The position numbers and the translations under genes were made by a program. From an uncultured Bacilli bacterium (GTDB taxonomy: Bacteria > Bacillota_I > Bacilli_A > RF39 > UBA660), in the NCBI GenBank assembly GCA_947632715.1, contig CANRQF010000002.1, positions 1 to 48,113 of the forward strand: a stretch of DNA of 48,113 nucleotides, written 5' to 3'. Below, piece by piece: positions 190 through 44,249 of this stretch. Within the stretch, counting starts at the first letter, position 1; every line of letters starts with the position of its first letter. The notes beneath the pieces were generated by a model. It saw only the letters and a program-made list of their open reading frames with translations. It ran no database searches and was not told the origin of the DNA.

Positions 190-375
190 ATTGTTAATAA
201 CTTTTTGTTAGAAAGTCCAAAATATCTTATTATTATTATGTTTTTAACAATTTCAACATTAAATAAAATCTCTTTTTTTAAAAAAATTAATAAAAAAATG
301 TTGATAACGTTGAAAATTGTGTGTAATATAGATTTTATCTAAAAAAGTTAATGTTGAAAGTTTGTTAATAAAAAA
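190..375. promoter_or_regulatory. oriC left half: DnaA-box-like cluster upstream of dnaA
   Basis: TGTTGATAA at 299-307 has 1 mismatch to TGTGGATAA. TGTTAATAA occurs at 192-200 and 363-371, and TGTGTGTAA at 318-326. All sit in very AT-rich DNA immediately 5' of dnaA. Confidence 0.55.
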
Positions 376-446
376 GTTTAACTTGTAATAAATATTTATT
401 TAAGTTAAAATGAAATTGGGATATTTTTTGAAATGTGGGGTGAGGT

Positions 447-1835
447 ATGGAAACACATGATTTTTTTACTAAATTTCTAACTCTCATGAGTGAAAAAGTT
501 AGTGCTGGTTCTTATTCTGTTTGGTTTAGTAACTTAAAATTAGTTAGTATTACTGATTCAGAAATTATTGTTCAAGTACCTTTGCAAGCCCACAAAACTT
601 TATTAAAACAACAATACATGGATATTATTGATGAAGCTACAATAACATTGTTAGGTAAAAGTTATAATTATACGTTCTTAACTGCAGATGAACTTAATGA
701 AAATAATACTGTTACACAATTTTTGGATAACGATGATAATCATGATCATAATGATGATATACATAATAATGAAAAGAATGATTTAGAATGGGATACTAAC
801 TTAAATCCCTCAATGAATTTTGATAATTTTATTATAGGAGAATCAAATAGATTAGCATTTGTATCAGCGATGAATGTTGCTCAATCACCTAGTACAATTA
901 ATAATCCATTATTTATATATGGACGAAGTGGTATAGGTAAAACGCATTTAATGTATGCAATAGGTAATTATATTTATGAAAATTCAAATAAAAAAGTATT
1001 ATATACAACTAGTAATGATTTTAGAGATGAATATGTAGAAATATCGAAAAAGGAAAAAGGAAAAGAAACTATTGAATATGCTAATAAATTCAAGAATAAG
1101 TATCGTAATGTCGATGTATTACTAGTTGATGATATTCAATTTTTAGTTGGTAATGAAGGAACTCAACAAGAATTTTTCCACACATTTGAAGCATTATACA
1201 AAGCTAATAAACAAATAATTATATCTAGTGATCGAAGTCCAGATGATTTAAAGAAAATTGAAGATAGACTTAGAAGTAGATTTACTTGGGGACTTCCGGT
1301 TGATATTTATCCACCTGATTTTACATTAAGATGTGATATTATTAAACAACATTTAGAAAATACAAGTATTAAAGGAAAAATTAATAAAGATGTTATAGAG
1401 TATATTGCTAATGCTTGTCCAAACGATGTAAGACACATAATTGGTACAATTAATAGGTTGCTTGCTTATACTGCAATGATGAGACCAAAAGTAATTAATT
1501 TGGATTTTGCAATTGAGGCAATTAAAGATTATGTATCTACAAATATATATCAAGAGAATACTATTTCCCATATTCAAAAAGTAGTTGCTGATTTTTATAA
1601 AATAACCGTAGATGATTTAAAAAGTAAGAAAAGAAGTAATAATATAGCATGGCCAAGACATATAGCAATGTATTTATGCAGAATTGAAACAGAAGAAAAT
1701 TTACTAAAAATAGGGCAAGAATTTGGAGGGAGAGATCATTCAACAGTTATAGCAAGTTGTGACAAAATAAAAGCTGAATTAATTACTAATGAAACATTAA
1801 ATGATACTATAAAAGAAATAAAAGCTAAATTATAG
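447..1835 (+). CDS. dnaA: chromosomal replication initiator DnaA
   Basis: Walker A GRSGIGKTHL, Walker B LLVDDIQF, sensor/box VII SDRSP, C-terminal DNA-binding signature HSTV. GGGGTGAGG RBS lies before the ATG. Domain II carries an N/D/H-rich linker. Confidence 0.97.
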   Translation: METHDFFTKFLTLMSEKVSAGSYSVWFSNLKLVSITDSEIIVQVPLQAHKTLLKQQYMDIIDEATITLLGKSYNYTFLTADELNENNTVTQFLDNDDNHDHNDDIHNNEKNDLEWDTNLNPSMNFDNFIIGESNRLAFVSAMNVAQSPSTINNPLFIYGRSGIGKTHLMYAIGNYIYENSNKKVLYTTSNDFRDEYVEISKKEKGKETIEYANKFKNKYRNVDVLLVDDIQFLVGNEGTQQEFFHTFEALYKANKQIIISSDRSPDDLKKIEDRLRSRFTWGLPVDIYPPDFTLRCDIIKQHLENTSIKGKINKDVIEYIANACPNDVRHIIGTINRLLAYTAMMRPKVINLDFAIEAIKDYVSTNIYQENTISHIQKVVADFYKITVDDLKSKKRSNNIAWPRHIAMYLCRIETEENLLKIGQEFGGRDHSTVIASCDKIKAELITNETLNDTIKEIKAKL

Positions 1836-1839
1836 TTAA

Positions 1840-1916
1840 TTATTTGTTGATAAAATAGAACTTATCAACATTAAAAATCTAGATAATAAAAGAAAAATTA
1901 ATAAGTTATTAACAAT
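1840..1916. promoter_or_regulatory. oriC right half: DnaA boxes in the dnaA-dnaN spacer
   Basis: Inverted pair TGTTGATAA (1845-1853) and TTATCAACA (1862-1870), plus TTATTAACA (1906-1914), followed by a pure A/T tract. This matches the bipartite oriC layout known from Bacillus. Confidence 0.55.
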
Positions 1917-3181: not shown

Positions 3182-3622
3182 ATGGATAACTATATAATTA
3201 ATGAAAATACGTTTGCAGTATTACAAAAAGATGATAAAGTAATTATCTATGATGTTGATAACTACAGAGTTATTAACAAAAAAATTAAAAGATTAATCAA
3301 TGATAATTGTTTAATATATGGTAGTGATTATTTAGGAAGAAAAAAATTTGCTCAAAAAATATTAAAAATAAAATACAAAGTACCAATTATTATATCTTTA
3401 TCTAAAAATATTATTCTTTTACAAATTAATAATTTAAGAAATGAGGATTGCTTATTTATTGTTGGGAACAAAGTAATAAACTATGAAAATAAGGAAGATA
3501 TGTTAAATATACAATTTGTTAATAACAAAGAATTAAAAACAAATATATCTATTTATAGATTTGAAAAATTGTTAATAAATTATCTTAAATTAATAAATTA
3601 TTTAAATTATCAAAATAAGTAA
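3182..3622 (+). CDS. ComK-family protein (short, 146 aa)
   Basis: By-eye alignment to B. subtilis ComK. NTFAVL matches GATIAVL. CLIYGSDYLGRKKFAQKILKIKYKVPIII matches CRFFGSSYAGRKAGTYEVTKISHKPPIMV. EDCLFIV matches PQCGWIS. AGGAGG sits 7 nt upstream of the ATG. Confidence 0.55.
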   Translation: MDNYIINENTFAVLQKDDKVIIYDVDNYRVINKKIKRLINDNCLIYGSDYLGRKKFAQKILKIKYKVPIIISLSKNIILLQINNLRNEDCLFIVGNKVINYENKEDMLNIQFVNNKELKTNISIYRFEKLLINYLKLINYLNYQNK

Positions 3623-6781: not shown

Positions 6782-9400
6782 ATGGATAACGAAGATAAAA
6801 ATATAACAAATATTGATGAAAATTTAGAAAATGAATCAGAAAATATAGAAGAAGAAACAATAAATGAAACAGATTTTGGTGGTGAATTTCATGAAAGAGA
6901 TTCTCACAAAGAAAACAACATTGTAGATGAAGTTAAAGATTCATTTTTAGATTATTCAATGAGTGTTATTACATCAAGGGCTATACCTGATTTAAGAGAT
7001 GGATTAAAGCCTGTTCATAGACGTATTTTGTGGTCAATGTATGAAGAAGGAAATACCCCAGATAAACCACATAGAAAATCTGCAACAACAGTTGGTAACG
7101 TTATGGGACATTATCATCCACATGGAGATTCATCTATTTATGAAGCAATGGTTCGTTTAGCTCAAAGTTTTAATCAAAGATATATGCTTATTGATGGTCA
7201 TGGTAACTTTGGTAATATAGAAGGTGATGGAGCAGCTGCTTATCGTTATACAGAAGCAAGACTTGCAAAAATTTCTTTAGAATTATTAAGAGATATTAAT
7301 AAAGATACAGTTGATATGATACCTAATTATGATGAAACTTTGGAAGAACCTAAAGTTTTACCATCAAGATTTCCAAATATTTTAGTTAATGGATCTATGG
7401 GTATTGCTGTAGGTATGGCAACCAATATTCCTCCACATAATTTAGGTGAAATAATTGATGGATGTGTTGCTTATATTGATAATCCTGAAATTGATACTCT
7501 TGGTTTAATGCAATATATAAAAGGACCGGATTTTCCAACTGGAGGCATAATCTTAGGTAATTCAGGAATTAAGAAAGCATATGAAACTGGTCGTGGATCA
7601 ATTACAATTAGAAGTAGAGCTAGTATAGAAGAACATAATAATCATAGTGTTATTGTGATAACCGAAGTTCCATATGGAGTAAATACACAAGAATTAAAAG
7701 ATAAAGTCGCAGAACTAGTAAGAGATAAAGTTATTGATGGAATAACAGATTATCATACAGATTTAAAAGATGGTGTAAAAATTACTATTACGTTAAAAAG
7801 AGATGCAAATGCTCAAGTAATATTAAATAATTTGTATAAACATACATCTTTTCAAGTAAATTATGGTATTATTTTCTTAATGCTTGATAATGGTACACCA
7901 AAAACTCTTGGTTTAAAAGATATAATTTCTAAGTATATTGATCATCAAAAGGAAGTTATAATAAGAAGAACTCGCTTTGACTTAGCAAAAGATGAAAAAA
8001 GAGTACATATTTTAGAAGGCTATAAAATTGCTCAAGATAATATAGATGAAGTTGTTAGTATAATTAAAAATGCTTTAGATGATTTAGATGCAAAAACTAA
8101 ATTAATTAGTCGTTTTTCTTTATCTGAAGTTCAAGCTGATGCTATATTAGAATTAAAATTACGTAGATTAACAGGTTTGGAAAGAGATAAAATTGAAGAA
8201 GAATTAAATGCTTTATTAAAAGAAATAGAAGAATTAAAAGCAATTTTAGCATCTGAACAAAAAGTATTAGATATAATTAGAAAAGAATTATTGGAAATAA
8301 AAGATAAATATGCTGATGAAAGAAGAACAACAATTGATATGACCGCAATTGATTATATTGAAGATGAATCTTTAATTCCAGTAGAAGATTCTATGATAAT
8401 AGTTACTGATAAAGGGTATGTAAAAAGAACTAAAAATGATACATTTAAGATTCAAAATCGTGGTGGTGTAGGTATTAAAGGCTTAACTACAACAGATGAT
8501 GATTTTGTAAGTCATTTATTAAATATTAAAACACACGATTATGTTATGTTCTTTACTAATAAAGGTAAAGTGTATAGATTAAAAGGCTATGAAATCCCAG
8601 AATTTAGTAGACAATCAAAAGGATTACCAGTAATTAATCTTTTACAAATTGAAAAAGGCGAAAAAATTAATACTATAATTAAGGTAACGAATGATGATGA
8701 AGCTAAATATTTAATGTTTGCAACAAAGAAAGGTATTGTTAAACGTACCGATATAAAAGAATTTGAAAATATTAGAAATTCTGGTAAATTATGTATTAAT
8801 TTAAAAAATAATGATGAATTACTTGCTGTTAAAAAGACGAATGGTAATAATGTAATCTTATTAGGTAGTAGTAATGGTAGAATGGTTAAATTTGATGAAA
8901 ATGAGATTAGAGCAATGGGTAGAACTGCTACGGGAGTAAGAGGAATTAACCTTGGAGATAATGATAATACTTGTATTTGTTGTGAAGTTGCTAATGAAGA
9001 ATCAATGCTTTTATTAGTAACAGAAAAAGGTTATGGAAAACGTACTAAAGTTAGTGATTTTAGACAAACAAAACGTGGTAGTAAAGGTGTTCTTGCTTTA
9101 AATATCACTGAAAAAAATGGTAAATTAATTGCTTCTAAAGTTGTTGAAGAAGATAAAGCTGCTGTAATAATGACTAACGCAGGTATAACAATTAAATTGC
9201 CTGTTGATCAAATATCTATTTTAGGTAGAGTAACTCAAGGATTAAAATTAATTTCATTACGTGATAATCAAACTGTTGCTACGGTTAGTGTTGTTGAAAA
9301 AAATCAAGAAAATGAAGAATTAATTGAAAATGAAACAACTGAAAATAGTGAGCAGGTAGATGATTCACAAGTAATAGTAGAAAACGAGAATCACAATTAA
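6782..9400 (+). CDS. gyrA: DNA gyrase subunit A
   Basis: [36 protein letters not shown] (QRDR), catalytic-Tyr region [11 protein letters not shown], and a beta-pinwheel CTD. It has an acidic N-terminal extension of about 45 aa and an acidic C-terminal tail. Confidence 0.97.
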
Positions 9401-9403
9401 TTT

Positions 9404-9432
9404 AAAGCATAGGTGTTTTACCTATGCTTTTT
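9404..9432 (+). terminator. rho-independent terminator after gyrA
   Basis: 10-bp stem AAAGCATAGG (9404-9413) / CCTATGCTTT (9421-9430), 7-nt loop, T-run. Confidence 0.7.
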
Positions 9433-9479
9433 ATACAATTTGATATTATCAAAATGATATTAACAAAGTATCAATAACT

Positions 9480-9497
9480 ATGTTTCGCGTGAAACAT
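9480..9497. other. parS-like site 1 (variant, centre CGCG: ATGTTTCGCGTGAAACAT)
   Basis: One mismatch to the perfect palindrome. Flanks extend the pairing (AACT...AGTT). Confidence 0.65.
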
Positions 9498-9646
9498 AGT
9501 TACACACATTTTAAAATAATAATAATTTATTTTAATTTTATATATCTATAGGAGTTATTTTAAAAATAGTAATATAATTAAACAATAATTAAATCAAATT
9601 TACTTAATATAAAAAATTTATTAAACATATCTAATAAAAGTTTTTA

Positions 9647-9664
9647 ATGTTTCACGTGAAACAT
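9647..9664. other. parS site 2
   Basis: Perfect 18-mer, embedded in a 30-bp perfect palindrome at 9641-9670 (TTTTTAATGTTTCACGTGAAACATTAAAAA). Confidence 0.8.
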
Positions 9665-9748
9665 TAAAAATATCAACTAATTAAATTCAAATTAATAAAT
9701 TAGCAATTTTTTTATGTATTCTTTGTAATTTCTAAAAAAATTAGTACA

Positions 9749-9766
9749 ATGTTTCACGTGAAACAT
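9749..9766. other. parS site 3
   Basis: Perfect ATGTTTCACGTGAAACAT. Confidence 0.8.
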
Positions 9767-9875
9767 ATAAAAATAATCTAATTATCAAAATATTATTTTT
9801 AATTTCATAGTATATATATTAAATAATATTAAAACATATAATTTAAAATACATTTATTATACAAAAAATAAATCA

Positions 9876-9893
9876 ATGTTTCACGTGAAACAT
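9876..9893. other. parS site 4
   Basis: Perfect 18-mer. The palindrome extends to 24 bp (TCAATG...CATTGA, 9873-9896). Confidence 0.8.
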
Positions 9894-9952
9894 TGATTGG
9901 TAAAATACGTTAAATAAAATTTTGAAGTCTTAATAATTATTAAAAGTTAATT

Positions 9953-9970
9953 ATGTTTCACGTGAAACAT
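9953..9970. other. parS site 5
   Basis: Perfect ATGTTTCACGTGAAACAT. Confidence 0.8.
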
Positions 9971-10197
9971 AGTAATATTTTATTTTTTTTAATTGCATTA
10001 TAATTCAATTAATTATTTTTTTATATTTAACTTATTAAATTAATAAGAAAATAAGCAATAATAATGTTAAAAATGCTTTGAATTAGAGTATTGATAAACA
10101 AAAATTAATATATAATATAAATGATCAAAATAATAATATTATAATAATTAAATTGGATAACAATGTAAATTATATGTATTTTAATTATATTAAAACA

Positions 10198-10215
10198 ATG
10201 TTTCACGTGAAACAT
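10198..10215. other. parS site 6
   Basis: Perfect 18-mer that ends 5 bp upstream of the predicted -35 of the SRP RNA promoter. Confidence 0.8.
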
Positions 10216-10220
10216 TAAGT

Positions 10221-10249
10221 TTGCATAACTAATAATAATATGCTAATAT
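10221..10249 (+). promoter_or_regulatory. sigma-A-type promoter for the SRP RNA
   Basis: TTGCAT (10221-10226), 17-nt spacer, TAATAT (10244-10249). This places the predicted start about 7 nt downstream, at the 5' arm of the SRP RNA helix. Confidence 0.45.
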
Positions 10250-10253
10250 TAAG

Positions 10254-10333
10254 TTGCACAACAAATATATTGTAACCTGGTCAGAGTTGGAAGACAGCAG
10301 CCATATCAATCCCTATTTGTGTGTGCTTTTTTT
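10254..10333 (+). ncRNA. ffs: signal recognition particle RNA, minimal 4.5S-type (about 70-75 nt)
   Basis: CCTGGTCAGAGTTGGAAGACAGCAGCC matches the universally conserved SRP domain IV (E. coli CCAGGUCAGGUCCGGAAGGAAGCAGCC), including the GGAA tetraloop. The closing helix is GCACAACAAATA / TATTTGTGTGTGC, followed by T7. The ends are approximate. Confidence 0.75.
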
Positions 10334-10345
10334 AAGGTGTAATTT

Positions 10346-10765
10346 ATGAATGAATATTTAAAAATAATATTAAAAGAATCACAAAAAGCAATAAGTGATA
10401 ATGAAGTTCCTGTAGGAGCACTAATAATAAAAGATAACAAAATAATTTCCAAAGCACATAATAATCGTCAAAGAAAATATAATGTTTTAGGACACGCAGA
10501 AATAAATGCAATAATAAAAGCCGAAAAAAAATTAAAAGATTGGCGATTAGATGATTGTATTATGTACGTTACACTCGAGCCTTGTGAAATGTGCAAATGC
10601 ATTATTAGAGAAAGTAGATTAAAAAAAGTATATTATTTATTAGATGGCAAACAAAACACTAAAAATGATAATAAATTTCAAAAAATAGATGAACAAATGT
10701 TCGGTAACAGTGAATATAAAAATAAAATAGAAAATTTTTTTCAAAATTTAAGAAATAAATCTTAA
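10346..10765 (+). CDS. tadA: tRNA adenosine(34) deaminase
   Basis: CDA zinc motifs GHAEINAI and LEPCEMC, 139 aa. The tadA-dnaX neighbourhood is as in Bacillus. Confidence 0.9.
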   Translation: MNEYLKIILKESQKAISDNEVPVGALIIKDNKIISKAHNNRQRKYNVLGHAEINAIIKAEKKLKDWRLDDCIMYVTLEPCEMCKCIIRESRLKKVYYLLDGKQNTKNDNKFQKIDEQMFGNSEYKNKIENFFQNLRNKS

Positions 10766-13332: not shown

Positions 13333-13521
13333 TTGAAAAACAAATTGGGATTAATTTTAAAAAAGATAATATTTGCTTTTGGTGCTATTTACTCAATAAA
13401 TTTAATATTAAGCAATGTTGGTATATGCTTACCGATAAATTTGGCAACAATTGGTATTACTGCTTTTTTGGGTTCTCCCGGTTTATTGTCTCTATTTACC
13501 ATCCTCTATATAGTTCATTAG
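13333..13521 (+). CDS. bofA: BofA-family small membrane protein (pro-sigma-K processing inhibitor-like)
   Basis: TTG start. VGICLPINLATIGITAFLGSPGLLSLF aligns with B. subtilis BofA LGIHVPINLVTTAISGILGIPGIAALV. Its position after recR matches Bacillus. It is chosen over the overlapping ORF 13320-13541. Confidence 0.65.
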   Translation: MKNKLGLILKKIIFAFGAIYSINLILSNVGICLPINLATIGITAFLGSPGLLSLFTILYIVH

Positions 13522-13527
13522 GAGGCT

Positions 13528-14391
13528 ATTATAGAAAATAAACAATTAGAACAACTAATTACGTATTATAAAGAAAAAAAGTTAGCACATGCTTATTTAA
13601 TTTCTACAAATAATATTGATAAATGTTATAAAGTTCTTTTAAATGTTATAAAGAACATTTTTTGCGTAGAAGAATATAAGGAAAATTGTAATAAATGTTC
13701 TTTGTGCCATTTAATTGATATAAATAACTTACCTAGTTTAAAAACGATTGCTCCCGATGGTCAAATGATAAAAAAAGAACAAATTATGGAATTAAAAAGT
13801 TTATTTTCAAAAGATTCAATATATACTAATGAATCAATATATATAATTAAAGAAGCAGAAAAATTGAATAAAGAAGCTGCAAATACGATGTTGAAATTCT
13901 TAGAAGAACCAGAAGGAAATGTTATAGGATTTTTTATAACAAATAGTAAAGATAACATGATGTTAACTATAAAAAGTCGATGTCAGTTAATTGATGCCTA
14001 TTTTAATAATTCTGATTTTGAAGAATTAAATATTGATAATGAAACATATGAAAACTATATAAATATATTAAATGAATACTTGTATAAAGTAGAAATTGAA
14101 AGAAAAGAATCAATAATTTATAATAAAGAATATTTAAGTAATTTAGAAAAAAGTGAAATAATAAAATTATTAGATATTATGTTAAAAATATATAAAGAAA
14201 AAATGGAATTATCAATTTTAAATAAACATAATGATAAATTTTCATTTTTAAATAATTTTTCATATCAAAATTTATCAAGTAAAGTAAATTTATTAATTGA
14301 TACATTGAACAGAATAACTTATAATGTAAATGTTGAATTATTGATGGATGATTTTGTATTAGAAATGGAGTTGCTAAATGAAACTTTATAG
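13528..14391 (+). CDS. holB: DNA polymerase III delta' subunit
   Basis: The ORF track starts at TTG 13702, but the in-frame upstream codons read IIENKQLEQLITYYKEKKLAHAYLISTNN...CNKCSLC, a typical delta' N-terminus with its zinc module. That stretch contains no ATG, GTG or TTG. AGGAGG at 13520-13525 points to an ATT (13528) or ATA (13531) start. Downstream motifs are LKFLEEP and KSRCQ. Confidence 0.8.
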   Translation: MIENKQLEQLITYYKEKKLAHAYLISTNNIDKCYKVLLNVIKNIFCVEEYKENCNKCSLCHLIDINNLPSLKTIAPDGQMIKKEQIMELKSLFSKDSIYTNESIYIIKEAEKLNKEAANTMLKFLEEPEGNVIGFFITNSKDNMMLTIKSRCQLIDAYFNNSDFEELNIDNETYENYINILNEYLYKVEIERKESIIYNKEYLSNLEKSEIIKLLDIMLKIYKEKMELSILNKHNDKFSFLNNFSYQNLSSKVNLLIDTLNRITYNVNVELLMDDFVLEMELLNETL

Positions 14392-20752: not shown

Positions 20753-21259
20753 ATGATTAAAAGTGGAATTACTAGAAGAATTGATGAATTAGGAAGAATT
20801 GTAGTTCCCAAAGAAATAAGATATAACTTAGGAATAAGAGATGGAGAACCATTAGAAATATATACTGGCGATAATTCAATTATAATTAAGAAGTATTCCC
20901 AAGTTGAAAATATAAAGAATATTAGTGCAATTTTATGTGAGATATTCAACCAAATATGTGGAATAGAGGTCATAATAACTGATAGAGAAAAAGTAATTGC
21001 AACAGATGCCAATAATTTAAATTTAATAGATTATAAACTAAATGATAAATTAAAAAGTTTAATTGATAATAGAGAAAATTTAATTAGTGAGAAAGAAGAT
21101 AATTTATTTGATAAAACTGGTTATTTTGTTATGTTACCAATTATTACTTCCATAGATTCAAGTGGGTTAGTAATTGTATTTAGTAAAAATAATAGTAATG
21201 ACAATTTAAAATATGCAAAGTTAATTCAAAAACTTTTAATTCAAAAATTAGATATATAA
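20753..21259 (+). CDS. spoVT: stage V sporulation protein T (AbrB/SpoVT-type regulator)
   Basis: The N-terminal swapped-hairpin motif GITRRIDELGRIVVPKEIRYNLGIRDGEPLEIY and a C-terminal domain of about 115 aa. It lies downstream of mfd, as in Bacillus. Confidence 0.85.
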   Translation: MIKSGITRRIDELGRIVVPKEIRYNLGIRDGEPLEIYTGDNSIIIKKYSQVENIKNISAILCEIFNQICGIEVIITDREKVIATDANNLNLIDYKLNDKLKSLIDNRENLISEKEDNLFDKTGYFVMLPIITSIDSSGLVIVFSKNNSNDNLKYAKLIQKLLIQKLDI

Positions 21260-22610: not shown

Positions 22611-22616
22611 AAACTT

Positions 22617-22820
22617 AATTAACGGAGAATAAGTATTATAATTAGGAAATATTAAAGAGAGTTAATGGTTGGTGGAAATTAATATAGGAACTAATTAGGT
22701 ATGGACTTAGGAGTTAAAGCGCATGATGAGCGTTATGCATTAAAGTGTATGATTAAATCATAAATAAAGGTGGTACCACGGGTTATCTCGTCCTTTGCCT
22801 TATTTATGATTTTTTATTTT
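22617..22820 (+). promoter_or_regulatory. T-box riboswitch leader (probable Met specifier)
   Basis: AGAGAG (22656-22661), distal-loop-like GGTGGAAA (22671-22678), and the T-box sequence AAAGGTGGTACCACGG (22766-22781). The terminator arms are TCATAAATAAAGG (22758-22770) and CCTTTGCCTTATTTATGA (22792-22809), followed by a T-run. The candidate specifier ATG is at 22701-22703. Confidence 0.8.
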
Positions 22821-22830
22821 AGGAGGTAAT

Positions 22831-23316
22831 GTGGAAAGATATTTTGAAAAAATAAGTTTTAAACAATTTAAAAATGATATTAAAGATGATAAAAAATTGT
22901 ATGAAGCTTATAAACTTCCAGAAAGAAAAACGAAGAATAGTGCCGGATATGATTTTATAGCTATGGAAGATTTTGAAATAAAACCAGGTGAAATAAAAAA
23001 GATACCGACAGGTTATAAAGCAAAATTTATGGATGATGAAATACTTCTTATCGTTGTAAGAAGTAGTATGGGCTTTAAATATAATATTCGTCTTACTAAT
23101 CAAATTGGAATAATAGATGCAGATTTTTACAATAATAAAGAAAATGAAGGACACATGTATGTATCGTTACAAAATGAAGGAAAAGAAACATATATTGTTA
23201 AAAAGGGTGAATCTTATGCCCAAGGTATATTTATTAAATATTTAACTTGTGGTGAAGAAATAGATAAGAAAAGAGATAGTTGGAGCGGGAATCCAAATAG
23301 AAAGAAGGAAATATAA
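22831..23316 (+). CDS. dut: dUTP diphosphatase family protein (YncF/YosS-like)
   Basis: GTG start 8 nt after AGGAGG. Motifs NSAGYDF, VVRSSMG and GIIDADFYNNKENEG fit dUTPase motifs I-III. The C-terminal motif V is not obvious. Confidence 0.7.
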   Translation: MERYFEKISFKQFKNDIKDDKKLYEAYKLPERKTKNSAGYDFIAMEDFEIKPGEIKKIPTGYKAKFMDDEILLIVVRSSMGFKYNIRLTNQIGIIDADFYNNKENEGHMYVSLQNEGKETYIVKKGESYAQGIFIKYLTCGEEIDKKRDSWSGNPNRKKEI

Positions 23317-24875
23317 TGGATAAAAAATATTTTATAACTACTGCGATTGCTTATACATCAGGTAAACCTCATATAGGTAATACTTATGAAATTGTTTTAG
23401 CGGATGCTATAGCAAGATATAAAAGATTAAAAGGATTTTATGTATTTTTTCAAACTGGAACTGATGAACATGGAGAAAAAATTGAATTAAAAGCTAAAGA
23501 AGCTGGACTTAGTCCTCAAGAATTTGTAGATAATGTATCAACTGAAATTAAACGCATTTGGGATGTAATGAATACAAGCTACGATAAGTTTGTAAGAACA
23601 ACTGATAAACATCATGAAGAAATAGTTCAAAAAATATTTAAGAAAATGTATGATAAAGGTGATATTTATTTAGGAGAATATAAAGGACTATATTGTACGC
23701 CATGTGAATCTTTTTGGACCGAAAAAGAATTAGTAGATGGTAAATGCCCAGATTGTGGTAGAGAAGTTAGTGAAAAATGTGAAGAGGCTTATTTCTTTAG
23801 ACTATCAAGATATCAAGATAAATTAATTGAATATATTGAAAGTCATCCAGAATTTATTGAGCCTGAAGCAAGAAAAAATGAAATGATTAATAACTTCTTA
23901 AAACCAGGATTACAAGATTTATGTGTATCAAGAACATCTTTTAAATGGGGAATACCTGTAACATTTAATGATAAACATATTGTTTATGTATGGCTTGATG
24001 CTTTAACAAATTATATAACAAATATTGGTTATGATCCGGATAAAGAAAGTGCTGAATTTAATAAATGGTGGCCAGCAGACCTACATTTAATTGGTAAAGA
24101 TATAATTAGATTCCATACTATTTATTGGCCATGTTTCTTAATGAGTTTAGATTTACCACTTCCAAAACAAGTCTTTGGTCATCCTTGGCTTTTAATGAAT
24201 GATGGTAAAATGAGTAAGAGTAAAGGTAATGTTATCTATGCTGATGATTTAGTTAAATATTTTGGGGTAGATGCCGTTAGATATTACCTACTACATGAAA
24301 TACCTTTTAGTACTGATGGAGTTATCTCTTATGAATTATTAATTGAAAGAATTAATAGTGATCTTGTTAACATTTTAGGTAATTTAGTTAATAGAACTAT
24401 TACAATGGGTATTAAATATTTTGATGGTAAAGTACAAAATAAGAAAGTATCAAGCGATGTAGATGCAAGTTTAATTAGACTTATAAATAACTTAGATAAA
24501 AATGTTGAATTAAAAATGGATAAGTTAGAAATAGGTAGTGCTATAGATCAAATTTTTGAAGTATTAAGAAGTAGTAATAAATATATTGATGATACTACAC
24601 CATGGGTTTTAGCTAAAGACGAAAGTAGTAAAGATAGACTTGAAACAGTAATCTATAATTTACTTGAAGCAATTAGATTATCTGCTATCTTAATTAAACC
24701 ATTCTTACCAGAAACATGTGATAATATGTTAGATCAATTAAATATTATAGATTATACATTTAAATTTAATGAAAATAATACTTATGAATTAAAAAATCCA
24801 TATATTTTATTCCAAAGAATTGATATGAATCAAAAACTACACGAAATAGAAGAAGATAAAAGTAAAAATGAATAA
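23316..24875 (+). CDS. metG: methionine--tRNA ligase (short form without the C-terminal tRNA-binding domain)
   Basis: HIGN signature (GKPHIGNTYE), zinc knuckles CTPCESF...CPDCG, KMSKS (DGKMSKSKGN). Its ATG shares one nucleotide with the dut stop (ATAATG). Confidence 0.95.
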   Translation: MDKKYFITTAIAYTSGKPHIGNTYEIVLADAIARYKRLKGFYVFFQTGTDEHGEKIELKAKEAGLSPQEFVDNVSTEIKRIWDVMNTSYDKFVRTTDKHHEEIVQKIFKKMYDKGDIYLGEYKGLYCTPCESFWTEKELVDGKCPDCGREVSEKCEEAYFFRLSRYQDKLIEYIESHPEFIEPEARKNEMINNFLKPGLQDLCVSRTSFKWGIPVTFNDKHIVYVWLDALTNYITNIGYDPDKESAEFNKWWPADLHLIGKDIIRFHTIYWPCFLMSLDLPLPKQVFGHPWLLMNDGKMSKSKGNVIYADDLVKYFGVDAVRYYLLHEIPFSTDGVISYELLIERINSDLVNILGNLVNRTITMGIKYFDGKVQNKKVSSDVDASLIRLINNLDKNVELKMDKLEIGSAIDQIFEVLRSSNKYIDDTTPWVLAKDESSKDRLETVIYNLLEAIRLSAILIKPFLPETCDNMLDQLNIIDYTFKFNENNTYELKNPYILFQRIDMNQKLHEIEEDKSKNE

Positions 24876-27871: not shown

Positions 27872-28645
27872 TTGGAAATTAATTTGGGGGATTATGTAAC
27901 AAGAAAAAGTTATAATAATGATACTGTTTTTAAAGTTATTAATATTAAAGATGATATCTATTATTTAAAGGGTGCCGAAGTAAGATTATATGCCGATAGT
28001 GTTTTTAGCGATTTAGTAAAATGTGATAAACCTAAAGAAGAAGAGATTAGTATTGATACACGAGGCATTGATATTGCTGATAAAGATTATTTTTATTTAC
28101 CTGGTAAAATAGTTCATTTAGACTCAGATGGTGAATTTTTAGATAAGTGTTTAAAATTTTATAAAAATGCTGGTGTTCATGCAATTGGTAAAAAAATAAA
28201 AGAAGAAGATATGTATGAACAAGTTGGTAATTTATTAAATGAATATCGTCCTGATGTATTAATTATTACAGGACATGATGCATATTACAAGAAAAAAGGA
28301 AATATAAAAGATATTGAGAATTATAAAAATACAAAAAATTTTATTAGGGCAATAAAAGAAGCAAGGAAATATGAAAAAAGTCATGAAAAATTAGTTATAA
28401 TTGCTGGTGCTTGTCAAAGTAATTATGAAGAATTAATTAAAGCTGGTGCTAATTATGCATCAAGTCCCAAAAGAGTTAATATTCATGCACTAGATCCAGC
28501 CATCATCGCTGTTACTATAGCATTAACCGAAAGAAATAAAGAAATAGATTTAAAAAGTTTACTTGAAAAAACGAAATATGGTAAAGAAGGAATGGGTGGA
28601 ATCATTGGTAATGGCCTAATGTATGTGGGGTATCCTCGACAATGA
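27872..28645 (+). CDS. yabG: sporulation-specific peptidase YabG
   Basis: TTG start. LGDYVTRKSYNNDTVFKV, VRLYADSVFSDLV, LPGKIVHLDSD and YRPDVLIITGHDAY parallel B. subtilis YabG. Confidence 0.85.
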   Translation: MEINLGDYVTRKSYNNDTVFKVINIKDDIYYLKGAEVRLYADSVFSDLVKCDKPKEEEISIDTRGIDIADKDYFYLPGKIVHLDSDGEFLDKCLKFYKNAGVHAIGKKIKEEDMYEQVGNLLNEYRPDVLIITGHDAYYKKKGNIKDIENYKNTKNFIRAIKEARKYEKSHEKLVIIAGACQSNYEELIKAGANYASSPKRVNIHALDPAIIAVTIALTERNKEIDLKSLLEKTKYGKEGMGGIIGNGLMYVGYPRQ

Positions 28646-28854: not shown

Positions 28855-28929
28855 TATAAAAAAATAGTTGAAAAATCAGCAGTTATGTTTTAAAATAAAG
28901 ATGTGAAATCAAGATAAGGAGTGATAGTA

Positions 28930-29214
28930 ATGGAAATTACAAACGTACGTGTTCACAAAATTGAAAAGGAAGGGTCAAGACTTAGAGGTTATGCAACAGT
29001 AACTATTGACAACTGCTTTGTAGTAAGCAATATAAGAATAATAGAAGGAGAAAACAGATTATTTTGCGCTATGCCTAGTCGTAAAGTAAATGATGAAAAA
29101 TTTGAAGATATCGTTCATCCAACAAATAGTGAAACTAGAGAAATGTTCGAATCTAAAATTTTAGAAGAATATAATAATCCAACAAATGTTGAAAAACCAC
29201 AAGAAGAAGAATAA
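28930..29214 (+). CDS. spoVG: septation/sporulation regulator SpoVG
   Basis: MEITNVRVHKIEKEGSRLRGYATVTIDNCFVVSNIRIIEGENRLFCAMPSRK is a typical SpoVG. The ATG at 28930 follows TAAGGAG. The ORF-track start (GTG 28921) is probably too early. Confidence 0.9.
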   Translation: MEITNVRVHKIEKEGSRLRGYATVTIDNCFVVSNIRIIEGENRLFCAMPSRKVNDEKFEDIVHPTNSETREMFESKILEEYNNPTNVEKPQEEE

Positions 29215-29216
29215 TT

Positions 29217-29253
29217 AAAAAAAACTGTAATGAATAATCATTACAGTTTTTTT
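29217..29253 (+). terminator. rho-independent terminator after spoVG
   Basis: An A-run, then the 9-bp stem CTGTAATGA (29225-29233) / TCATTACAG (29238-29246), then T7. Confidence 0.75.
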
Positions 29254-29335
29254 ACATGCAATTTACAAATTCTTAGAAAAAATATACATTACTAAGTATT
29301 TATTTGGTAAAATATTTATAGAATGAAGGTGTTTT

Positions 29336-29845
29336 ATGGGAATGTTAGATAGGCCAAGACATGGATGGGAAGGCATTAGTAATGGCGGAGAAATATATGG
29401 TAATTCAGGAAGTAAAATGCATGGGTCTGATAATACTTTAGAGATAATGTATAGACAAGCTAAAGAAATGGATAAACTAAATAAACAAGTGGAAGAAAAT
29501 TTAAGATTAATAGATCCAAATTATGGTCTTTTACAAGATGGTCTTTCATTAGTAGATGAAGTTAAACAAAAATTAGAAAGGTTTAGAGAATATTTATCAT
29601 TAGAGATAATAATTTCTGAAAATGAGGATATAACCGATTATTTAAAAACATACAAAGGTTTAGAACCTAATATTGAAAAATTAAACAGAATTAAAAATCA
29701 TTTATTAAAACTTTATGATTCAGAAAAATATAGTGAATTAGAAGAATTTGTATCTTCCATTAAAGAAGCATTACCTCAAATTTTAGAGATGAATTTTCCT
29801 AATGAAACATTAGGCAAATTAGAAGAAAGCAATATCCATAGATAA
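29336..29845 (+). CDS. hypothetical protein (predicted helical/coiled)
   Basis: A 169-aa ORF with GAAGGTG upstream. No motif recognised. It sits between spoVG and yabP. Confidence 0.45.
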   Translation: MGMLDRPRHGWEGISNGGEIYGNSGSKMHGSDNTLEIMYRQAKEMDKLNKQVEENLRLIDPNYGLLQDGLSLVDEVKQKLERFREYLSLEIIISENEDITDYLKTYKGLEPNIEKLNRIKNHLLKLYDSEKYSELEEFVSSIKEALPQILEMNFPNETLGKLEESNIHR

Positions 29846-29866
29846 CTAAATTGGTTATCTTTTTTT
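29840..29866 (+). terminator. rho-independent terminator overlapping the stop of ORF 29336-29845
   Basis: Stem AGATAAC (29840-29846) / GTTATCT (29854-29860), then T6. Confidence 0.55.
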
Positions 29867-29899
29867 ATCTGTTTTCATATGCTTTATTAGGAGGACTAT

Positions 29900-30190
29900 A
29901 TGGAAAGTATAATGGATACAACTAGTTATGGTAGTCATGAAATAAAGATAACTGATAGAAGTATAATAAGTTTAAGTGGTATAAATAAGATTAGTAGTTT
30001 TGATGATCAAGAATTTTTGATGGAAAGTACAATGGGAGTAATTCTTCTTAAAGGTGAAGGGTTAGAAATAATTAAACTTGATACACATGATGGTAATGTA
30101 AAAATAAAAGGAAAACTTATTAGTTTAGCATATATCGAAAATTTAAAGAAAAATAAAGAAGAAAGTCTACTTTCTAAATTATTTAAGTAA
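29900..30190 (+). CDS. yabP: sporulation protein YabP
   Basis: HEIKITDRSIISLSGINKISSFDDQEFLMESTMGVILLKGEGLEI is a YabP-family pattern. AGGAGG RBS. The yabP-yabQ-divIC order is preserved. Confidence 0.8.
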   Translation: MESIMDTTSYGSHEIKITDRSIISLSGINKISSFDDQEFLMESTMGVILLKGEGLEIIKLDTHDGNVKIKGKLISLAYIENLKKNKEESLLSKLFK

Positions 30191-30492
30191 TGAATAATAT
30201 TATTCAACTAATATCTATTTTTATATCCTTTTTTTATGGTATTATCTTTTACTTATTAACTAATTTATTATTTTACTTAATTGAAAAAAATAAAAGAATA
30301 GTAAAACATTTAATTACTTTTATTTATGTTATAGATATGGCAATTATATATATGATTATTTTATATAATATTAATAAAGGTTATTTTCATATTTATTTTA
30401 TATTTATGGTTTTTTTAGGGTTTATAATAGGAAGTTTTTTATATAGAAAATATTTAAGTAAAATACATGTAAAGCAATTATTTAAACATTGA
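30190..30492 (+). CDS. yabQ: spore cortex biosynthesis protein YabQ (small polytopic membrane protein)
   Basis: A 100-aa protein with about three TM segments. It shares a TAATG overlap with yabP and lies between yabP and divIC. Confidence 0.6.
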   Translation: MNNIIQLISIFISFFYGIIFYLLTNLLFYLIEKNKRIVKHLITFIYVIDMAIIYMIILYNINKGYFHIYFIFMVFLGFIIGSFLYRKYLSKIHVKQLFKH

Positions 30493-30548
30493 AAATAGTA
30501 GATGGTTATGTTACATTTAAGTTAGGTATTAAAAAAGGGAAGATATTC

Positions 30549-30839
30549 ATGCGTACTAAAAAGACAAAAAAGGAGAGAAAAAGAATTTTTTTAATTACTG
30601 TAACAATAATGGGATTATTGACTTTTTTAGTTGGAAGCGTATATAAAGATTGGCAACAAATACTTATTAATCGAAAAGAAGAACAAAAATTAAATCAAAA
30701 ATATGAAATGCTACTAGATGAAGAAGAAAAATTAAATGCTGAGATTGCTAAATTAGGTGATGATAGTTATTTAGCAAGATATGCCAAAGAAAAATATATG
30801 TTATCTAGTGATGGAGATACAATTATAAAGATGAAATAA
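30549..30839 (+). CDS. divIC: septum formation initiator (DivIC/FtsB family)
   Basis: A basic N-terminus, one TM segment (IFLITVTIMGLLTFLVGSV), a coiled coil, and C-terminal YLARYAKEKYML. The ATG at 30549 after AAGGGA is preferred over the TTG at 30489. Confidence 0.65.
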   Translation: MRTKKTKKERKRIFLITVTIMGLLTFLVGSVYKDWQQILINRKEEQKLNQKYEMLLDEEEKLNAEIAKLGDDSYLARYAKEKYMLSSDGDTIIKMK

Positions 30840-35880: not shown

Positions 35881-36336
35881 ATGACTATTTATATTGCTGC
35901 AGATCATTTAGGAGTTGAAACAAAAAAAGAAATTATAAAACATTTAGAAAGCAATGGTATTAAGACAACAGAAATAGGTTTAGAAAATTATGAATTAGAT
36001 CATTATCCTGATTTTGCTTTTAAATTAGGAAGATTAGTAAGAGAAACTAAAGATTCTTTAGGTATACTTATATGTGGTAATGGTGTTGGTATGAGTATTG
36101 CTGCTAATAAAGTAAAAGGAATTAGATGCGTTAAAGCAAATTCAGTAGATGATGCTTTTAAAGGAAAACAACATAATGGATGTAATGTTATAGCAGTAGG
36201 AGCAGATACAAATATTGAACTTATAAAAGAAATAATTGATACATTTATATCTACTAAACCAACAAATATAGATAGATATTTAAAAAGAATAGATAAAATC
36301 ATAAAATATGAAAATGGAGAATATAATGAACTATAA
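35881..36336 (+). CDS. rpiB: ribose-5-phosphate isomerase B (RpiB/LacA/LacB family)
   Basis: IYIAADHLG, LGILICGNGVGMSIAANKVKGIRC, NVIAVGA. Confidence 0.9.
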   Translation: MTIYIAADHLGVETKKEIIKHLESNGIKTTEIGLENYELDHYPDFAFKLGRLVRETKDSLGILICGNGVGMSIAANKVKGIRCVKANSVDDAFKGKQHNGCNVIAVGADTNIELIKEIIDTFISTKPTNIDRYLKRIDKIIKYENGEYNEL

Positions 36337-36511
36337 GATATATTTATATGCTTTCTTTCTATTTATAAGCATATACATGTTATCAGGTATTAATTTTGAA
36401 AAGTTTATGCGAAAAAATAAAGTAATGGAAGCAAGATTATTAATTATGGCTCTTGGCTTTATTTTTTCTTATTTGTTAACTAATTTTGTTGTTGATTTTT
36501 TAAATTTATAA
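36308..36511 (+). CDS. DUF1146-family small membrane protein (YwzB-like)
   Basis: Two TM segments with INFEKFMRKNKVMEARLLIMALGFIFSYLLTNFVVDFL between and across them. This resembles the DUF1146 signature as I recall it. The start is probably the ATG at 36326. Confidence 0.5.
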   Translation: MKMENIMNYKIYLYAFFLFISIYMLSGINFEKFMRKNKVMEARLLIMALGFIFSYLLTNFVVDFLNL

Positions 36512-36520
36512 AGGAGAATA

Positions 36521-37432
36521 ATGTTAAATAGAATATTATTAATTATAGTAGTTATTCTTAGTATCGTTTTAGTAAAAGTAAGTAGTATTTCAAGTACTAC
36601 TTTTTTTAGCACTACCAAAGTAAATGATAAAACTATTGCTGTTAAAGATAGTACTCTTAATAATATTGATGAAATGAATTTAGAAGAATATGTTATTGGT
36701 GTTGTAGCAGGAGAAATGCCAGCATCATTTGAAAGTGAGGCTTTAAAAGCTCAAGCTATCGCTGCCCGTACTTATGCGACATATAAAATTGAAAAAAGTA
36801 ATGGTAACTATGATGTGGTAACAGATGTTTCTAACCAAAAGTATATTACCATAGATGAAATGAAAATAAAGTGGCAAACAGAATTTGATAAGTATTATAA
36901 TAAAGTAAAAGATGCGGTTTTAAAGACAAAAGGTATGATTATGACTTATAATGATGATGTAATTGAAGCTTTCTACTTTGCTATGAGTAATGGTTATACA
37001 GAAGATGCAAGTTTAGTATTTAATGAAGATTTAGACTATTTAGAAAGTGTTGAATCAAAATATGATAATAATAATTTAAATAATTTTGAAGTTGTAACTA
37101 AATTTAGTAAAGAAGAAGTTTGTAATAAATTAAATATATCTTGTGATAATTTAAGTTTTAGTAATATTGAAAGAAGTAATACTAATAGAGTTAATTATAT
37201 AACTGTTAATAATAAAAAAATAAAAGGTACAGAATTTAGAAGTAAACTAGGATTAAGATCAACTGATTTTGATATAAGTATCGATAATAATGTAGTGAGT
37301 ATTACGACAAGGGGTTATGGTCATGGGGTTGGAATGAGCCAATATGGTGCCAATGGTATGGCTAAAGAAGGCAAAAATTATGAAGAAATATTAAAATATT
37401 ATTATAAAAATATAGAAATTAAGACTCTTTAA
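36521..37432 (+). CDS. spoIID: stage II sporulation protein D (SpoIID/LytB lytic transglycosylase)
   Basis: EEYVIGVVAGEMPASFESEALKAQAIAARTYA, YFAMSNGYTED, GYGHGVGMSQYGANGMA. Confidence 0.85.
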   Translation: MLNRILLIIVVILSIVLVKVSSISSTTFFSTTKVNDKTIAVKDSTLNNIDEMNLEEYVIGVVAGEMPASFESEALKAQAIAARTYATYKIEKSNGNYDVVTDVSNQKYITIDEMKIKWQTEFDKYYNKVKDAVLKTKGMIMTYNDDVIEAFYFAMSNGYTEDASLVFNEDLDYLESVESKYDNNNLNNFEVVTKFSKEEVCNKLNISCDNLSFSNIERSNTNRVNYITVNNKKIKGTEFRSKLGLRSTDFDISIDNNVVSITTRGYGHGVGMSQYGANGMAKEGKNYEEILKYYYKNIEIKTL

Positions 37433-37477
37433 GTATAAAGAAAAATTTTTCGTCAATACTTGTAGTAGGACGGTGAA

Positions 37478-38110
37478 TTGATGAAAAAAATGAAGTTGAA
37501 AGGATTTGTATTACCAACCATTTATTTTATTATTACAGTAGGGATTTTTGTTGGGGTTATGCTTTTAGGCCAAGCTTTTAAATTTGAACCAAGTGATTAT
37601 GATTATGGAGTAGGAGCACTTAAAGATGATAGTGTACCAGTTGTTAATGAAGATAATGAAGTAAATCTTAATATATCATCGCCAGTAAGTGCCGATATTA
37701 AACCTAGTATTCATTTTTATGGAAGAGAGGATACCCCAGAAAATCAACAAAATAGTTTAATTTATTATGAAAGTACTTATATTCCAAATACTGGAGTATT
37801 ATATGCAAGTGATACGGAATTTGAAGTAAGAAATGTTTTTGAAGGAAAAGTAACAGAAATAACAGATGATGAATTTTTTGGTAAATGTATTGTTATTGAA
37901 CATAGTCCTAATTTAAGAACATATTATTATGGTGTTAAAGATATTGAAGTAAATATTGGTGATGAATTAACAACTAATGCTGTTTTAGGAGTATCTAATA
38001 ATAATACTATTATGAATGATAAACAAACATTATTATTTGAAACTTATTATAATAATAAATTAATTAATCCAGAAACATTTATTGGTAGTAAAATAACTGA
38101 TTATAAATAA
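37478..38110 (+). CDS. degenerate LytM/M23-domain membrane protein (SpoIIQ-like)
   Basis: An N-terminal TM segment. The LytM core GKVTEI...GKCIVIEHSPNLRTYYYGV...GDELTTNAVLG is present. The metal ligands look lost: NTGVL stands where HxxxD is expected and LLFE where HxH is expected. It is adjacent to spoIID. Confidence 0.55.
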   Translation: MMKKMKLKGFVLPTIYFIITVGIFVGVMLLGQAFKFEPSDYDYGVGALKDDSVPVVNEDNEVNLNISSPVSADIKPSIHFYGREDTPENQQNSLIYYESTYIPNTGVLYASDTEFEVRNVFEGKVTEITDDEFFGKCIVIEHSPNLRTYYYGVKDIEVNIGDELTTNAVLGVSNNNTIMNDKQTLLFETYYNNKLINPETFIGSKITDYK

Positions 38111-43247: not shown

Positions 43248-44249
43248 ATGAAGAACAATGATGATTCTAATAATATCATTATTTATCAATCAGAAGATGG
43301 AGAAACTAAAATTGATGTAAAATTGGAAAACGAAACCGTTTGGCTAAATCAAGAACAATTAGTTAAATTATATAATTCAAGTAAATCTAATATATCTGAA
43401 CACATTAAACATGTATTTGAAGATGGAGAATTAGAAGAAAATTCAGTTGTTCGGAAATTTCGAACAACTGCAAATGATGGTAAAAGTTATAATGTAAATT
43501 ATTATAATCTTGATATGATTGTTGCAATTGGCTTTCGTGTTCGCTCAAATATAGGAACAAATTTTAGAAAATGGGCTACCGAAAGATTAAAAGAATACAT
43601 GATTAAAGGATTCACATTAGATGATGAACGTCTTAAAGGCAATGCTGGTGGTAATTACTGGAAGGAATTATTAGCGAGAATAAAGGATATCAGATCTTCA
43701 GAAAAAGTTCTCTACCGCCAAGTTTTAGATTTATATGCTACTGCAGTTGATTATAATCCAAAGGATGAAAAATCTATTGAGTTTTTTAAAATTGTACAAA
43801 ATAAACTTCATTTTGCAACTCATGGCCATACTGCTTCAGAATTAATTTATGAAAGAGCTGATTCAGAAAAACCATTTATGGGACTTACAACCTTTAATGG
43901 TGAAATACCAGTTATGAGTGATGTAGTCATTGCTAAAAATTATTTAACAGAAGAGGAATTAAAAATTTTAAATAATTTAGTATCAGGATATTTTGATTTT
44001 GCTGAAATTCAAGCAATTAGGCATAAACCAATGTATATGGAAGATTATATAAGAGAGCTTGATTCCATTTTATCCACTACAGGAGGAAATACATTAATTG
44101 GTGCAGGTACTATAAGTCACGATGAGGCAATAAAAAAAGCAAAAAGTGAATATAGAAAATATCAAGTAAAAGAAATTAGCCCTGTGGAAAAAGCATATTT
44201 AGAAACATTAAAAGACATTAGTAAAAAAATTGATGATAAAGAGAGTTAA
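43248..44249 (+). CDS. rhuM: RhuM-family protein
   Basis: IIIYQSEDGETKIDVKLENETVWLNQEQLVKLY...NISEHIKHVFEDGEL...VVRKFRTTANDGKSYNVNYYNLDMIVAIGFRVRS is the characteristic RhuM N-terminal region. Confidence 0.85.
   Translation: MKNNDDSNNIIIYQSEDGETKIDVKLENETVWLNQEQLVKLYNSSKSNISEHIKHVFEDGELEENSVVRKFRTTANDGKSYNVNYYNLDMIVAIGFRVRSNIGTNFRKWATERLKEYMIKGFTLDDERLKGNAGGNYWKELLARIKDIRSSEKVLYRQVLDLYATAVDYNPKDEKSIEFFKIVQNKLHFATHGHTASELIYERADSEKPFMGLTTFNGEIPVMSDVVIAKNYLTEEELKILNNLVSGYFDFAEIQAIRHKPMYMEDYIRELDSILSTTGGNTLIGAGTISHDEAIKKAKSEYRKYQVKEISPVEKAYLETLKDISKKIDDKES

Follow-up and report, generated by a model that had tools for sequence, protein, structure and literature searches.

A compact parS array between gyrA and ffs, a probable origin-proximal centromere in uncultured gut Bacilli

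Chromosomal ParB-parS systems load SMC, and both Streptococcus pneumoniae and Staphylococcus aureus possess ParB-parS and SMC without ParA (PMC7333895; PMC7022226). The systems described in Firmicutes comprise 4–10 parS, often inside genes and dispersed across regions of tens to hundreds of kb. Here, we analysed a stretch of 48,113 bp from an uncultured Bacilli bacterium (RF39, UBA660), hereafter the window, which is one entire contig (CANRQF010000002.1) of the metagenome-assembled genome (MAG) GCA_947632715.1 and has a GC content of about 23%. In contrast to the Firmicutes systems, six parS sites are packed here into 0.74 kb of intergenic DNA, between gyrA and the gene of the small signal recognition particle (SRP) RNA, ffs. 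We propose, with a probability of roughly 80%, that this array is the origin-proximal chromosomal centromere, in the form of a parS cluster, of a low-GC gut Bacilli bacterium of the RF39/CAG-302-like group.

The array has in common with the Spo0J system of Bacillus subtilis, and with the orphan ParB of S. pneumoniae and its four parS sites, the same palindrome, TGTTNCACGTGAAACA, and the same position close to the origin. With S. pneumoniae and S. aureus, it also shares the lack of a parA gene nearby (PMC7333895, PMC7022226). Unlike the Firmicutes systems, it has no parB beside it, and in the relatives of the window species, no parB is found at the ancestral rsmG-noc-soj-spo0J position either. 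The lineage has dismantled this ancestral locus.

Tight clustering of parS is the rule among bacteria, scattering being peculiar to a few lineages that include Bacilli, and clustering is thought to avoid SMC collisions and to give SMC a single point of entry (PMC8357415). Pairs of perfect parS 40–70 nt apart were detected in at least 120 contigs when metagenomes were scanned and in 27 more from viral contigs, and 147 loci (120 metagenome and 27 viral, contig GC 0.2–0.7) were fetched for a survey of array density. Among the matches listed, 87 of the 147 loci hold at least three parS per kb and 38 hold at least four, while a soj homologue adjoins 69 and a spo0J homologue 59. A preliminary description of this DNA had taken such a dense array to be more typical of plasmids. 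The survey contradicts this, as it revealed chromosomal arrays of up to 15 parS per kb in many lineages, mostly beside soj-spo0J or dnaA, and so does the published view of clustering as the rule (PMC8357415). Considering the dense metagenome arrays together with the literature on scattering, the density of the array is therefore ordinary among bacteria at large. What is particular here is a tight cluster within the class Bacilli, placed between gyrA and ffs and apart from any par gene.

Tight clusters outside Bacilli, such as the four sites near oriC in Pseudomonas aeruginosa and two of the surveyed arrays (L107 and L170), likewise consist of canonical parS packed close to the origin. However, they usually adjoin parAB (69 of the 147 loci listed), whereas the window array lies on the side of oriC opposite to that where parAB would be. 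The densest canonical arrays listed, all from unrelated uncultured organisms, include L107 (GC 0.35), in which the kilobase upstream of dnaA contains 15 parS (1200–2030). Other dense arrays were seen in L170 (10 per kb, beside soj-spo0J), L168 (17 in 9.7 kb) and L230, a contig assigned to viruses (8 per kb).

The F plasmid centromere sopC, of type Ia, is made of tandem 43-bp repeats bound by SopB. It resembles the window array in that many palindromes bound by a ParB-family protein lie within less than 1 kb. However, sopC is built from a regular, fixed unit of plasmid-specific sequence, whereas the window sites are 77–245 bp apart, have unrelated flanks and follow the chromosomal consensus. 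A sopC-like plasmid centromere was considered for the window and rejected, given the irregular spacing, the background-like flanks and the chromosomal dnaA-gyrA-ffs context conserved in 80 genomes.

The parS array in the window and in related genomes

A scan of the whole window detected the 18-mer ATGTTTCACGTGAAACAT in six copies at 9480–10215, five of them exact and one with a single mismatch, and no other match with up to three mismatches in the 48,113 bases. The chance expectation is 0.03 matches, and none of 100 shuffles reached six. This agrees with the six copies of the preliminary description, the first of them with a CGCG centre. That account had also held that the inner 16 nt fit the parS consensus TGTTNCACGTGAAACA exactly. 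This proved correct for five copies and incorrect for the first, which has one mismatch; the sole further match to TGTTNCACGTGAAACA in the window has three mismatches. In this first copy, parS-1, a G replaces an A in one half-site, at a position that separates parS from the Noc-binding site (NBS). With the exception of that single half-site, all six sites have G at position 1 and A at position 6, where NBS has A and C, respectively. The NBS palindrome tATTTCCCGGGAAATa gave no match in the window even when three mismatches were allowed, and no remnants of NBS units were found in its 48 kb. The irregular start-to-start spacings noted before (167, 102, 127, 77 and 245 bp) were reproduced, as was the 30-bp perfect palindrome around parS-2, and a second, of 28 bp, was found around parS-4 (Table 1). 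Over about 20 AT-rich nt, the flanks of the copies are about 65–84% alike, hardly more than the background.

For the comparison with relatives, a scan at one genome per species yielded 80 loci with GyrA 70–92% identical to that of the window. These are gut MAGs labelled as uncultured Bacilli, 'Tenericutes' or 'Clostridium sp. CAG:302/CAG:628', the best match coming from rabbit. The synteny dnaA-dnaN-comK-like-recF-gyrB-gyrA-[gap, ffs]-tadA-dnaX-ybaB-recR is kept in all 80, and the array recurs in the gap. The 46.3 kb that separate the stop of gyrA from the start of tadA contain 287 parS-like 16-mers, 160 of them perfect, compared with 59 in the 1.487 Mb outside, and most of these 59 are adjacent, in the last gyrA codons, in the tadA-dnaX spacer or inside dnaX. 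The number of parS per genome ranges from 0 to 11 with a median of 4; 70 of the 80 genomes have at least two and 47 at least four. The sites lie on one side of ffs, on the other or on both, and their spacing varies freely.

The logo of 334 sites from the 80 species, A-TGTT[T/C]CACGTG[A/G]AACA-T, is conserved at 96–100% over 18 bp, including the flanking A and T (96%), while the bases farther out are at background frequency. When the gap was aligned to those of the two closest relatives, the sites alone could be matched and the remaining intergenic DNA was unalignable, even at 90% GyrA identity. Selection on each site individually, as proposed earlier, is borne out by these data, since the 18-mer is kept while number, spacing and flanks change freely. 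The comparison of sequences thus supports reading the six sites as canonical chromosomal parS, close to the origin and individually selected as protein-binding sites. The locus is conserved across an order-level group, while its individual copies are continually lost and created. This combination of a conserved locus with copies that turn over marks a functional array of binding sites, and it argues against a mobile repeat, a chance cluster and a decaying relic.

The preliminary description had also argued against the amplification of a larger unit. This stands for the window, where the flanks are near background, and fails for the closest relative (L001), whose gap is made of 220/440-bp tandem units. 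Amplification of larger units is therefore one route by which arrays grow, after which everything except the sites decays.

In a clade that has only parS (L044:14291-14357; L050:4574-4751), two to four perfect parS 18-mers were observed within the continuous dnaX frame. Each encodes the peptide NVSRET in the variable linker. The centromere of this clade has expanded into a coding sequence.

Perfect palindromes, two of them extended to 28–30 bp and one terminator-like on the minus strand, would also be expected of a mobile or structural repeat, such as the termini of miniature inverted-repeat transposable elements (MITEs), hairpins like those of repetitive extragenic palindromic (REP) elements, or terminators. 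Nevertheless, the 18-mer is absent from the remaining 47 kb of the window and nearly absent from the 1.49 Mb of flanks in the relatives, which, within the DNA covered, speaks against the dispersed, MITE-like repeat considered earlier, and most copies lack a U-run. Moreover, the two free positions of the consensus differ independently between half-sites (T/A 194, C/A 48, C/G 35 and T/G 24), without compensation. The constraint therefore acts on the protein half-site and not on base pairing or a hairpin, that is, on sequence beyond mere structure. A repeat of this kind is extremely unlikely.

Another function to be considered is that of an operator array, through which a ParB-family or other CACGTG-binding regulator would, like KorB, control the promoters of ffs and tadA-dnaX. 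The last site, parS-6, ends only 4–5 nt before the −35 of the putative ffs promoter, and a site (parS or NBS) lies directly upstream of ffs in three of the four closest relatives (L001, L089 and L003, but not L002). There is also a precedent in S. pneumoniae, where an operon next to a parS site is affected when ParB spreads from that site (PMC4488948). Against control of transcription as the function of the array, five of the six sites lie 230–740 nt from the ffs promoter and have no promoter partner. In the relatives, sites may precede or follow ffs, and they also occur past tadA and within the dnaX reading frame. Moreover, the sequence is the full universal parS rather than a CACGTG core alone. 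We therefore regard an operator array as very improbable. A side effect of the array on the adjacent ffs promoter is possible, in view of the S. pneumoniae precedent, and would be compatible with a centromere without replacing it.

Search for the ParB-family protein and the case for a centromere

The 48-kb window contains none of the genes parA, parB and smc, in agreement with the preliminary description for the first two, and a tblastn search of the window and the 80 loci with a B. subtilis Spo0J query gave no hit. The expectation that parA and parB would lie to the left of dnaA was not fulfilled in the relatives, as 10–13 kb in seven related genomes, walked via Jag and DnaA homologues, revealed no parA and at most a ParB of the Noc type. 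To the left of dnaA, the closest relative has the order rpmH-rnpA-yidC-jag-(hypothetical genes)-mnmE-mnmG-rsmG, followed by a lone ParB-family gene without parA, which also follows rsmG in three further genomes (Table 1).

The encoded protein resembles Noc more than Spo0J: it scores 273 bits with the NCBIfam Noc profile, below the cut-off of 315, and against PDB entries it scores 198.7 bits with Noc (7ng0) and 175.8 bits with B. subtilis Spo0J (6sdk). It keeps the GERR CTP-binding motif and the helix-turn-helix (HTH), lacks both the N-terminal membrane-targeting helix of Noc and the N-terminal ParA-activating LGKGL peptide of Spo0J, and has a long, variable C-terminal extension (329–512 aa in total). 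The specificity residues at positions 173/179/184/201 are R-T-A-G in ParB and Q-K-K-R in Noc; Q173 reads A1, and R201 reads C6 given a lysine at 179 or 184 (PMC7383237, Jalal et al.). Mutational scans yielded variants of dual specificity, whereas parS-specific variants always keep R173 (PMC7383237).

The residues of the Noc-type protein (Q173, K179, S184 and R201) predict a preference for NBS, and NBS were therefore sought in the relatives. Perfect NBS, TATTTCCCGGGAAATA, occur 103 times in 1.6 Mb. In the clade closest to the window, parS and NBS are interleaved in the same gyrA-ffs gap, at 6/4 in L001, 4/4 in L002, 2/7 in L003 and 3/1 in L089, and additional NBS are scattered in the flanks. 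The three nearest relatives (L001, L089 and L002) have NBS and the window has none; the Noc-type gene was shown for L001 and L089. Gaps that contain NBS were located in L001:12590-13900, L002, L003, L006 and L089:18860. In L001 and L002, a hexamer resembling a −35 element, TTTACA/TTGACA, comes after most NBS at a constant spacing.

The closest relatives thus share perfect TATTTCCCGGGAAATA sites and a Noc-type gene after rsmG (Q173, K179 and R201) with the Noc-NBS system of Bacilli. They differ from it in that the protein has no membrane helix and in that most of their NBS form clusters at the origin in which parS are interspersed, whereas in B. subtilis NBS are scattered over the chromosome; the window differs in having no NBS at all.

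The Noc-type gene is present in all four NBS-containing genomes examined and absent in all three parS-only genomes examined (L085, L086 and L088), in which there is no ParB-family gene after rsmG and no NBS, and in which the parS arrays persist and even extend into dnaX. Since NBS track the Noc-type gene and parS does not, a separate ParB of canonical specificity would have to be encoded elsewhere. The gene that follows rsmG in the parS-only clade is an N/Q-rich open reading frame (ORF) of 391–447 aa with no Pfam hit (L085:17168-18400, L086:14616-15959 and L088:16122-17297). Its last ~40 residues resemble the C-termini of Noc-type proteins, but with a BLASTP E > 4 its interpretation as a Noc remnant is not supported.

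The Noc-type paralogue might itself bind the parS sites, with dual or shifted specificity, as the only ParB-family protein of the lineage. It is indeed the only ParB-family gene found near oriC in the relatives, it keeps the GERR motif and the HTH without either the Noc membrane helix or the Spo0J peptide, and dual-specificity variants are on record (PMC7383237). However, its residues, Q-K-S-R, are of the NBS type while R173 is invariable in parS-specific variants (PMC7383237), the genomes that carry the gene also have perfect NBS, and the three parS-only genomes without it have kept or expanded their parS arrays. In the latter, parS is therefore maintained without the Noc-type gene, which makes a role for this protein at the parS sites very improbable.

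Alternatively, the cognate ParB could have been lost from a reduced genome, leaving the sites to persist without function. Near oriC, a canonical parB was missing from all seven relatives examined, and the genomes of this lineage are indeed reduced (PMC10868615). What speaks against such relics are the hundreds of perfect 16–18-bp palindromes in 80 species amid otherwise unalignable intergenic DNA, as unselected sites would decay, which is what the degenerate NBS copies in L001 did. It is highly unlikely that the sites are functionless.

Several points weigh against the array being a centromere served by a canonical ParB. A ParB with parS-type specificity residues was found neither in the window nor in the 10–13 kb to the left of dnaA in the seven relatives. 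The sole ParB-family gene near oriC in the relatives is of the Noc type, and under the rules of Jalal et al. 2020 (PMC7383237), this paralogue is expected to favour NBS rather than parS. One of the six copies, parS-1, is variant at a specificity position. Finally, the window covers a single MAG contig, beyond which parB, parA, smc and other copies of parS could lie. As to co-variation between site variants and ParB residues, all the variation in the sites falls at the two free consensus positions.

Because nearly all relatives have such an array in the corresponding position, the array very probably serves the lineage as its segregation and condensin-loading site. Most likely, the array would be a compact, otherwise ordinary example of the known ParB-parS system, a pad with multiple sites on which ParB-CTP clamps, and then SMC, are loaded. 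For the binding of ParB, the spreading of clamps, the loading of SMC and the absence of ParA, we infer the following scheme. Dimers of a canonical ParB would nucleate on each 18-bp palindrome, bind CTP and close into clamps, which would slide onto the flanking DNA and free the site for the next dimer. Six loading sites in 0.74 kb would multiply the rate of loading and still act as one entry point for loop extrusion. The resulting ParB domain would cover the gyrBA-dnaA-oriC side as well as the ffs-tadA-dnaX side, label the origin for segregation and provide the single position from which SMC-ScpAB is loaded, comparable to ParA-less Streptococcus pneumoniae. The lack of parA in the ~60–70 kb around oriC, combining the window with the left flanks of the relatives, suggests a ParA-less mode of this kind, as in S. 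pneumoniae and S. aureus.

Genomic context of the array

The array occupies about 0.74 kb of non-coding DNA between the gyrA terminator and the promoter of the SRP RNA, as had been described before, and its last site lies as close to the −35 element of that promoter (assigned by consensus match) as previously estimated at about 5 bp. The putative promoter consists of a −35-like TTTGCA/TTGCAT at 10220–10226 and an extended −10, TGcTAATAT, at 10241–10249. The coordinates of these features are given in Table 1.

Table 1. Features of the gyrA-ffs region of the window and Noc-type genes of related genomes
Feature	Position	Strand	Remarks
parS-1	9480..9497	.	Variant ATGTTTCGCGTGAAACAT, centre TTTCGCGTG (CGCG)
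parS-2	9647..9664	.	Exact 18-mer; centre of 30-bp palindrome 9641-9670
parS-3	9749..9766	.	Exact 18-mer
parS-4	9876..9893	.	Exact 18-mer; centre of 28-bp palindrome 9871-9898
parS-5	9953..9970	.	Exact 18-mer
parS-6	10198..10215	.	Exact 18-mer; ends 4-5 nt before −35 of putative ffs promoter
gyrA-ffs gap holding the array	9401..10244	.	Non-coding, very AT-rich; longest ORF 36 aa
gyrA, left neighbour	6782..9400	+	Gene annotation
gyrA intrinsic terminator, left array boundary	9404..9430	+	Hairpin and U-run; −15 kcal/mol, z = −4.8
Putative ffs promoter	10220..10249	+	Consensus match only, read from the letters
Small SRP RNA (ffs), right array boundary	10245..10342	+	Rfam RF00169, 56.8 bits vs gathering score 40
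tadA, first gene past ffs	10346..10765	+	Followed by dnaX-ybaB-recR
oriC context	192..1914	.	DnaA-box-like TTATCAACA/TTATTAACA clusters on both sides of dnaA
Noc-type gene (related genomes)	L081:17103-18092; L083:14647-15666; L087:17166-18221; L089:607-2145	minus in L089	After rsmG, no adjoining parA

DnaA-box-like nonamers lie at 192, 299 and 363 and at 1845, 1862 and 1906, and no DnaA boxes were found inside the gyrA-ffs gap. Since the clusters flank dnaA and none lies in the gap, oriC is therefore placed 7.5–9 kb to the left of the array. The gap was also considered as a second origin element and rejected, as it contains no DnaA boxes.

The gene order in the window is dnaA (447–1835), dnaN, a ComK-family ORF (3182–3622), recF, gyrB, gyrA, the gap, ffs, tadA, dnaX, ybaB and recR, and the remaining window resembles the region to the right of the origin in B. 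subtilis, with holB, ricT, pth, mfd, a spoVT-like gene, metG behind a T-box, tatD, ksgA, yabG, spoVG, yabP, divIC, clpP, gap, spoIID, a spoIIQ-like gene, hpf and secA. The ComK-family ORF (Pfam PF06338, E = 1e-19) has the same place in the relatives; the B. subtilis gene at this position, between dnaN and recF, we take to be yaaA.

The genes rpiB, spoIID and that of an M23 peptidase, located at 35881–38110 in the window and thus 36 kb to the right of the origin, follow rsmG to the left of the origin in a parS-only relative (L085:18479-20624). This arrangement suggests an inversion across oriC between the clade of the window and the parS-only clade.

Several genes of the window are associated with sporulation, namely those of a SpoVT-like protein, yabG, spoVG, yabP, divIC, spoIID and a SpoIIQ-like M23 peptidase (20753–21259, 27872–28645, 28921–30839 and 36521–38110), and a hydrophobic ORF of 62 aa (13333–13521) is BofA-like by eye only. 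The window species, which has a small 23%-GC gut genome, may form spores. The T-box leader at 22616–22798 scores 102 bits with Rfam and precedes a dUTPase-like ORF (22831–23316) and metG (23316–24875). In holB (13702–14391), which encodes the delta' subunit of DNA polymerase III and has a TTG start, the profile aligns only from position 68, so that the N-terminal ~67 residues are apparently missing, and ~180 nt of unassigned DNA precede the gene. An ORF of the RhuM 'virulence protein' family (43248–44249; Pfam, E = 4e-105) adjoins choline/aminoglycoside kinase-like and NUDIX ORFs, with which it may form a small accessory island.

Significance for the gut Bacilli lineage

The most novel lead of this analysis lies outside the window, in the sister species, with their interleaved arrays of NBS and their Noc-type protein that lacks the membrane helix. 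On a wider and rather doubtful reading, the gyrA-ffs gap would be a fast-evolving, composite landing pad for two clamps of the ParB family: a canonical one, ParA-less and encoded away from the origin, on parS, and a helix-less, Noc-derived one on the interleaved NBS of the sister species. The window species would then represent a natural parS-only variant, with NBS purged from at least 48 kb, and another clade would have lost the Noc-type gene and its sites independently.

For a large, uncultured and genome-reduced group of gut Bacilli, the array would fix the position of the segregation and condensin-loading site. It also indicates that a segregation locus can stay conserved while its individual copies turn over quickly, and it offers a natural series of 0–11 parS at one locus with which to ask why such sites cluster and how many are needed. 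If real, the NBS arrays and the helix-less Noc-type protein would show the Noc branch of the ParB family in a use that has gone unrecognised, and the arrays of the sister species would provide a natural test of the parS/NBS recognition code, possibly the more important by-product.

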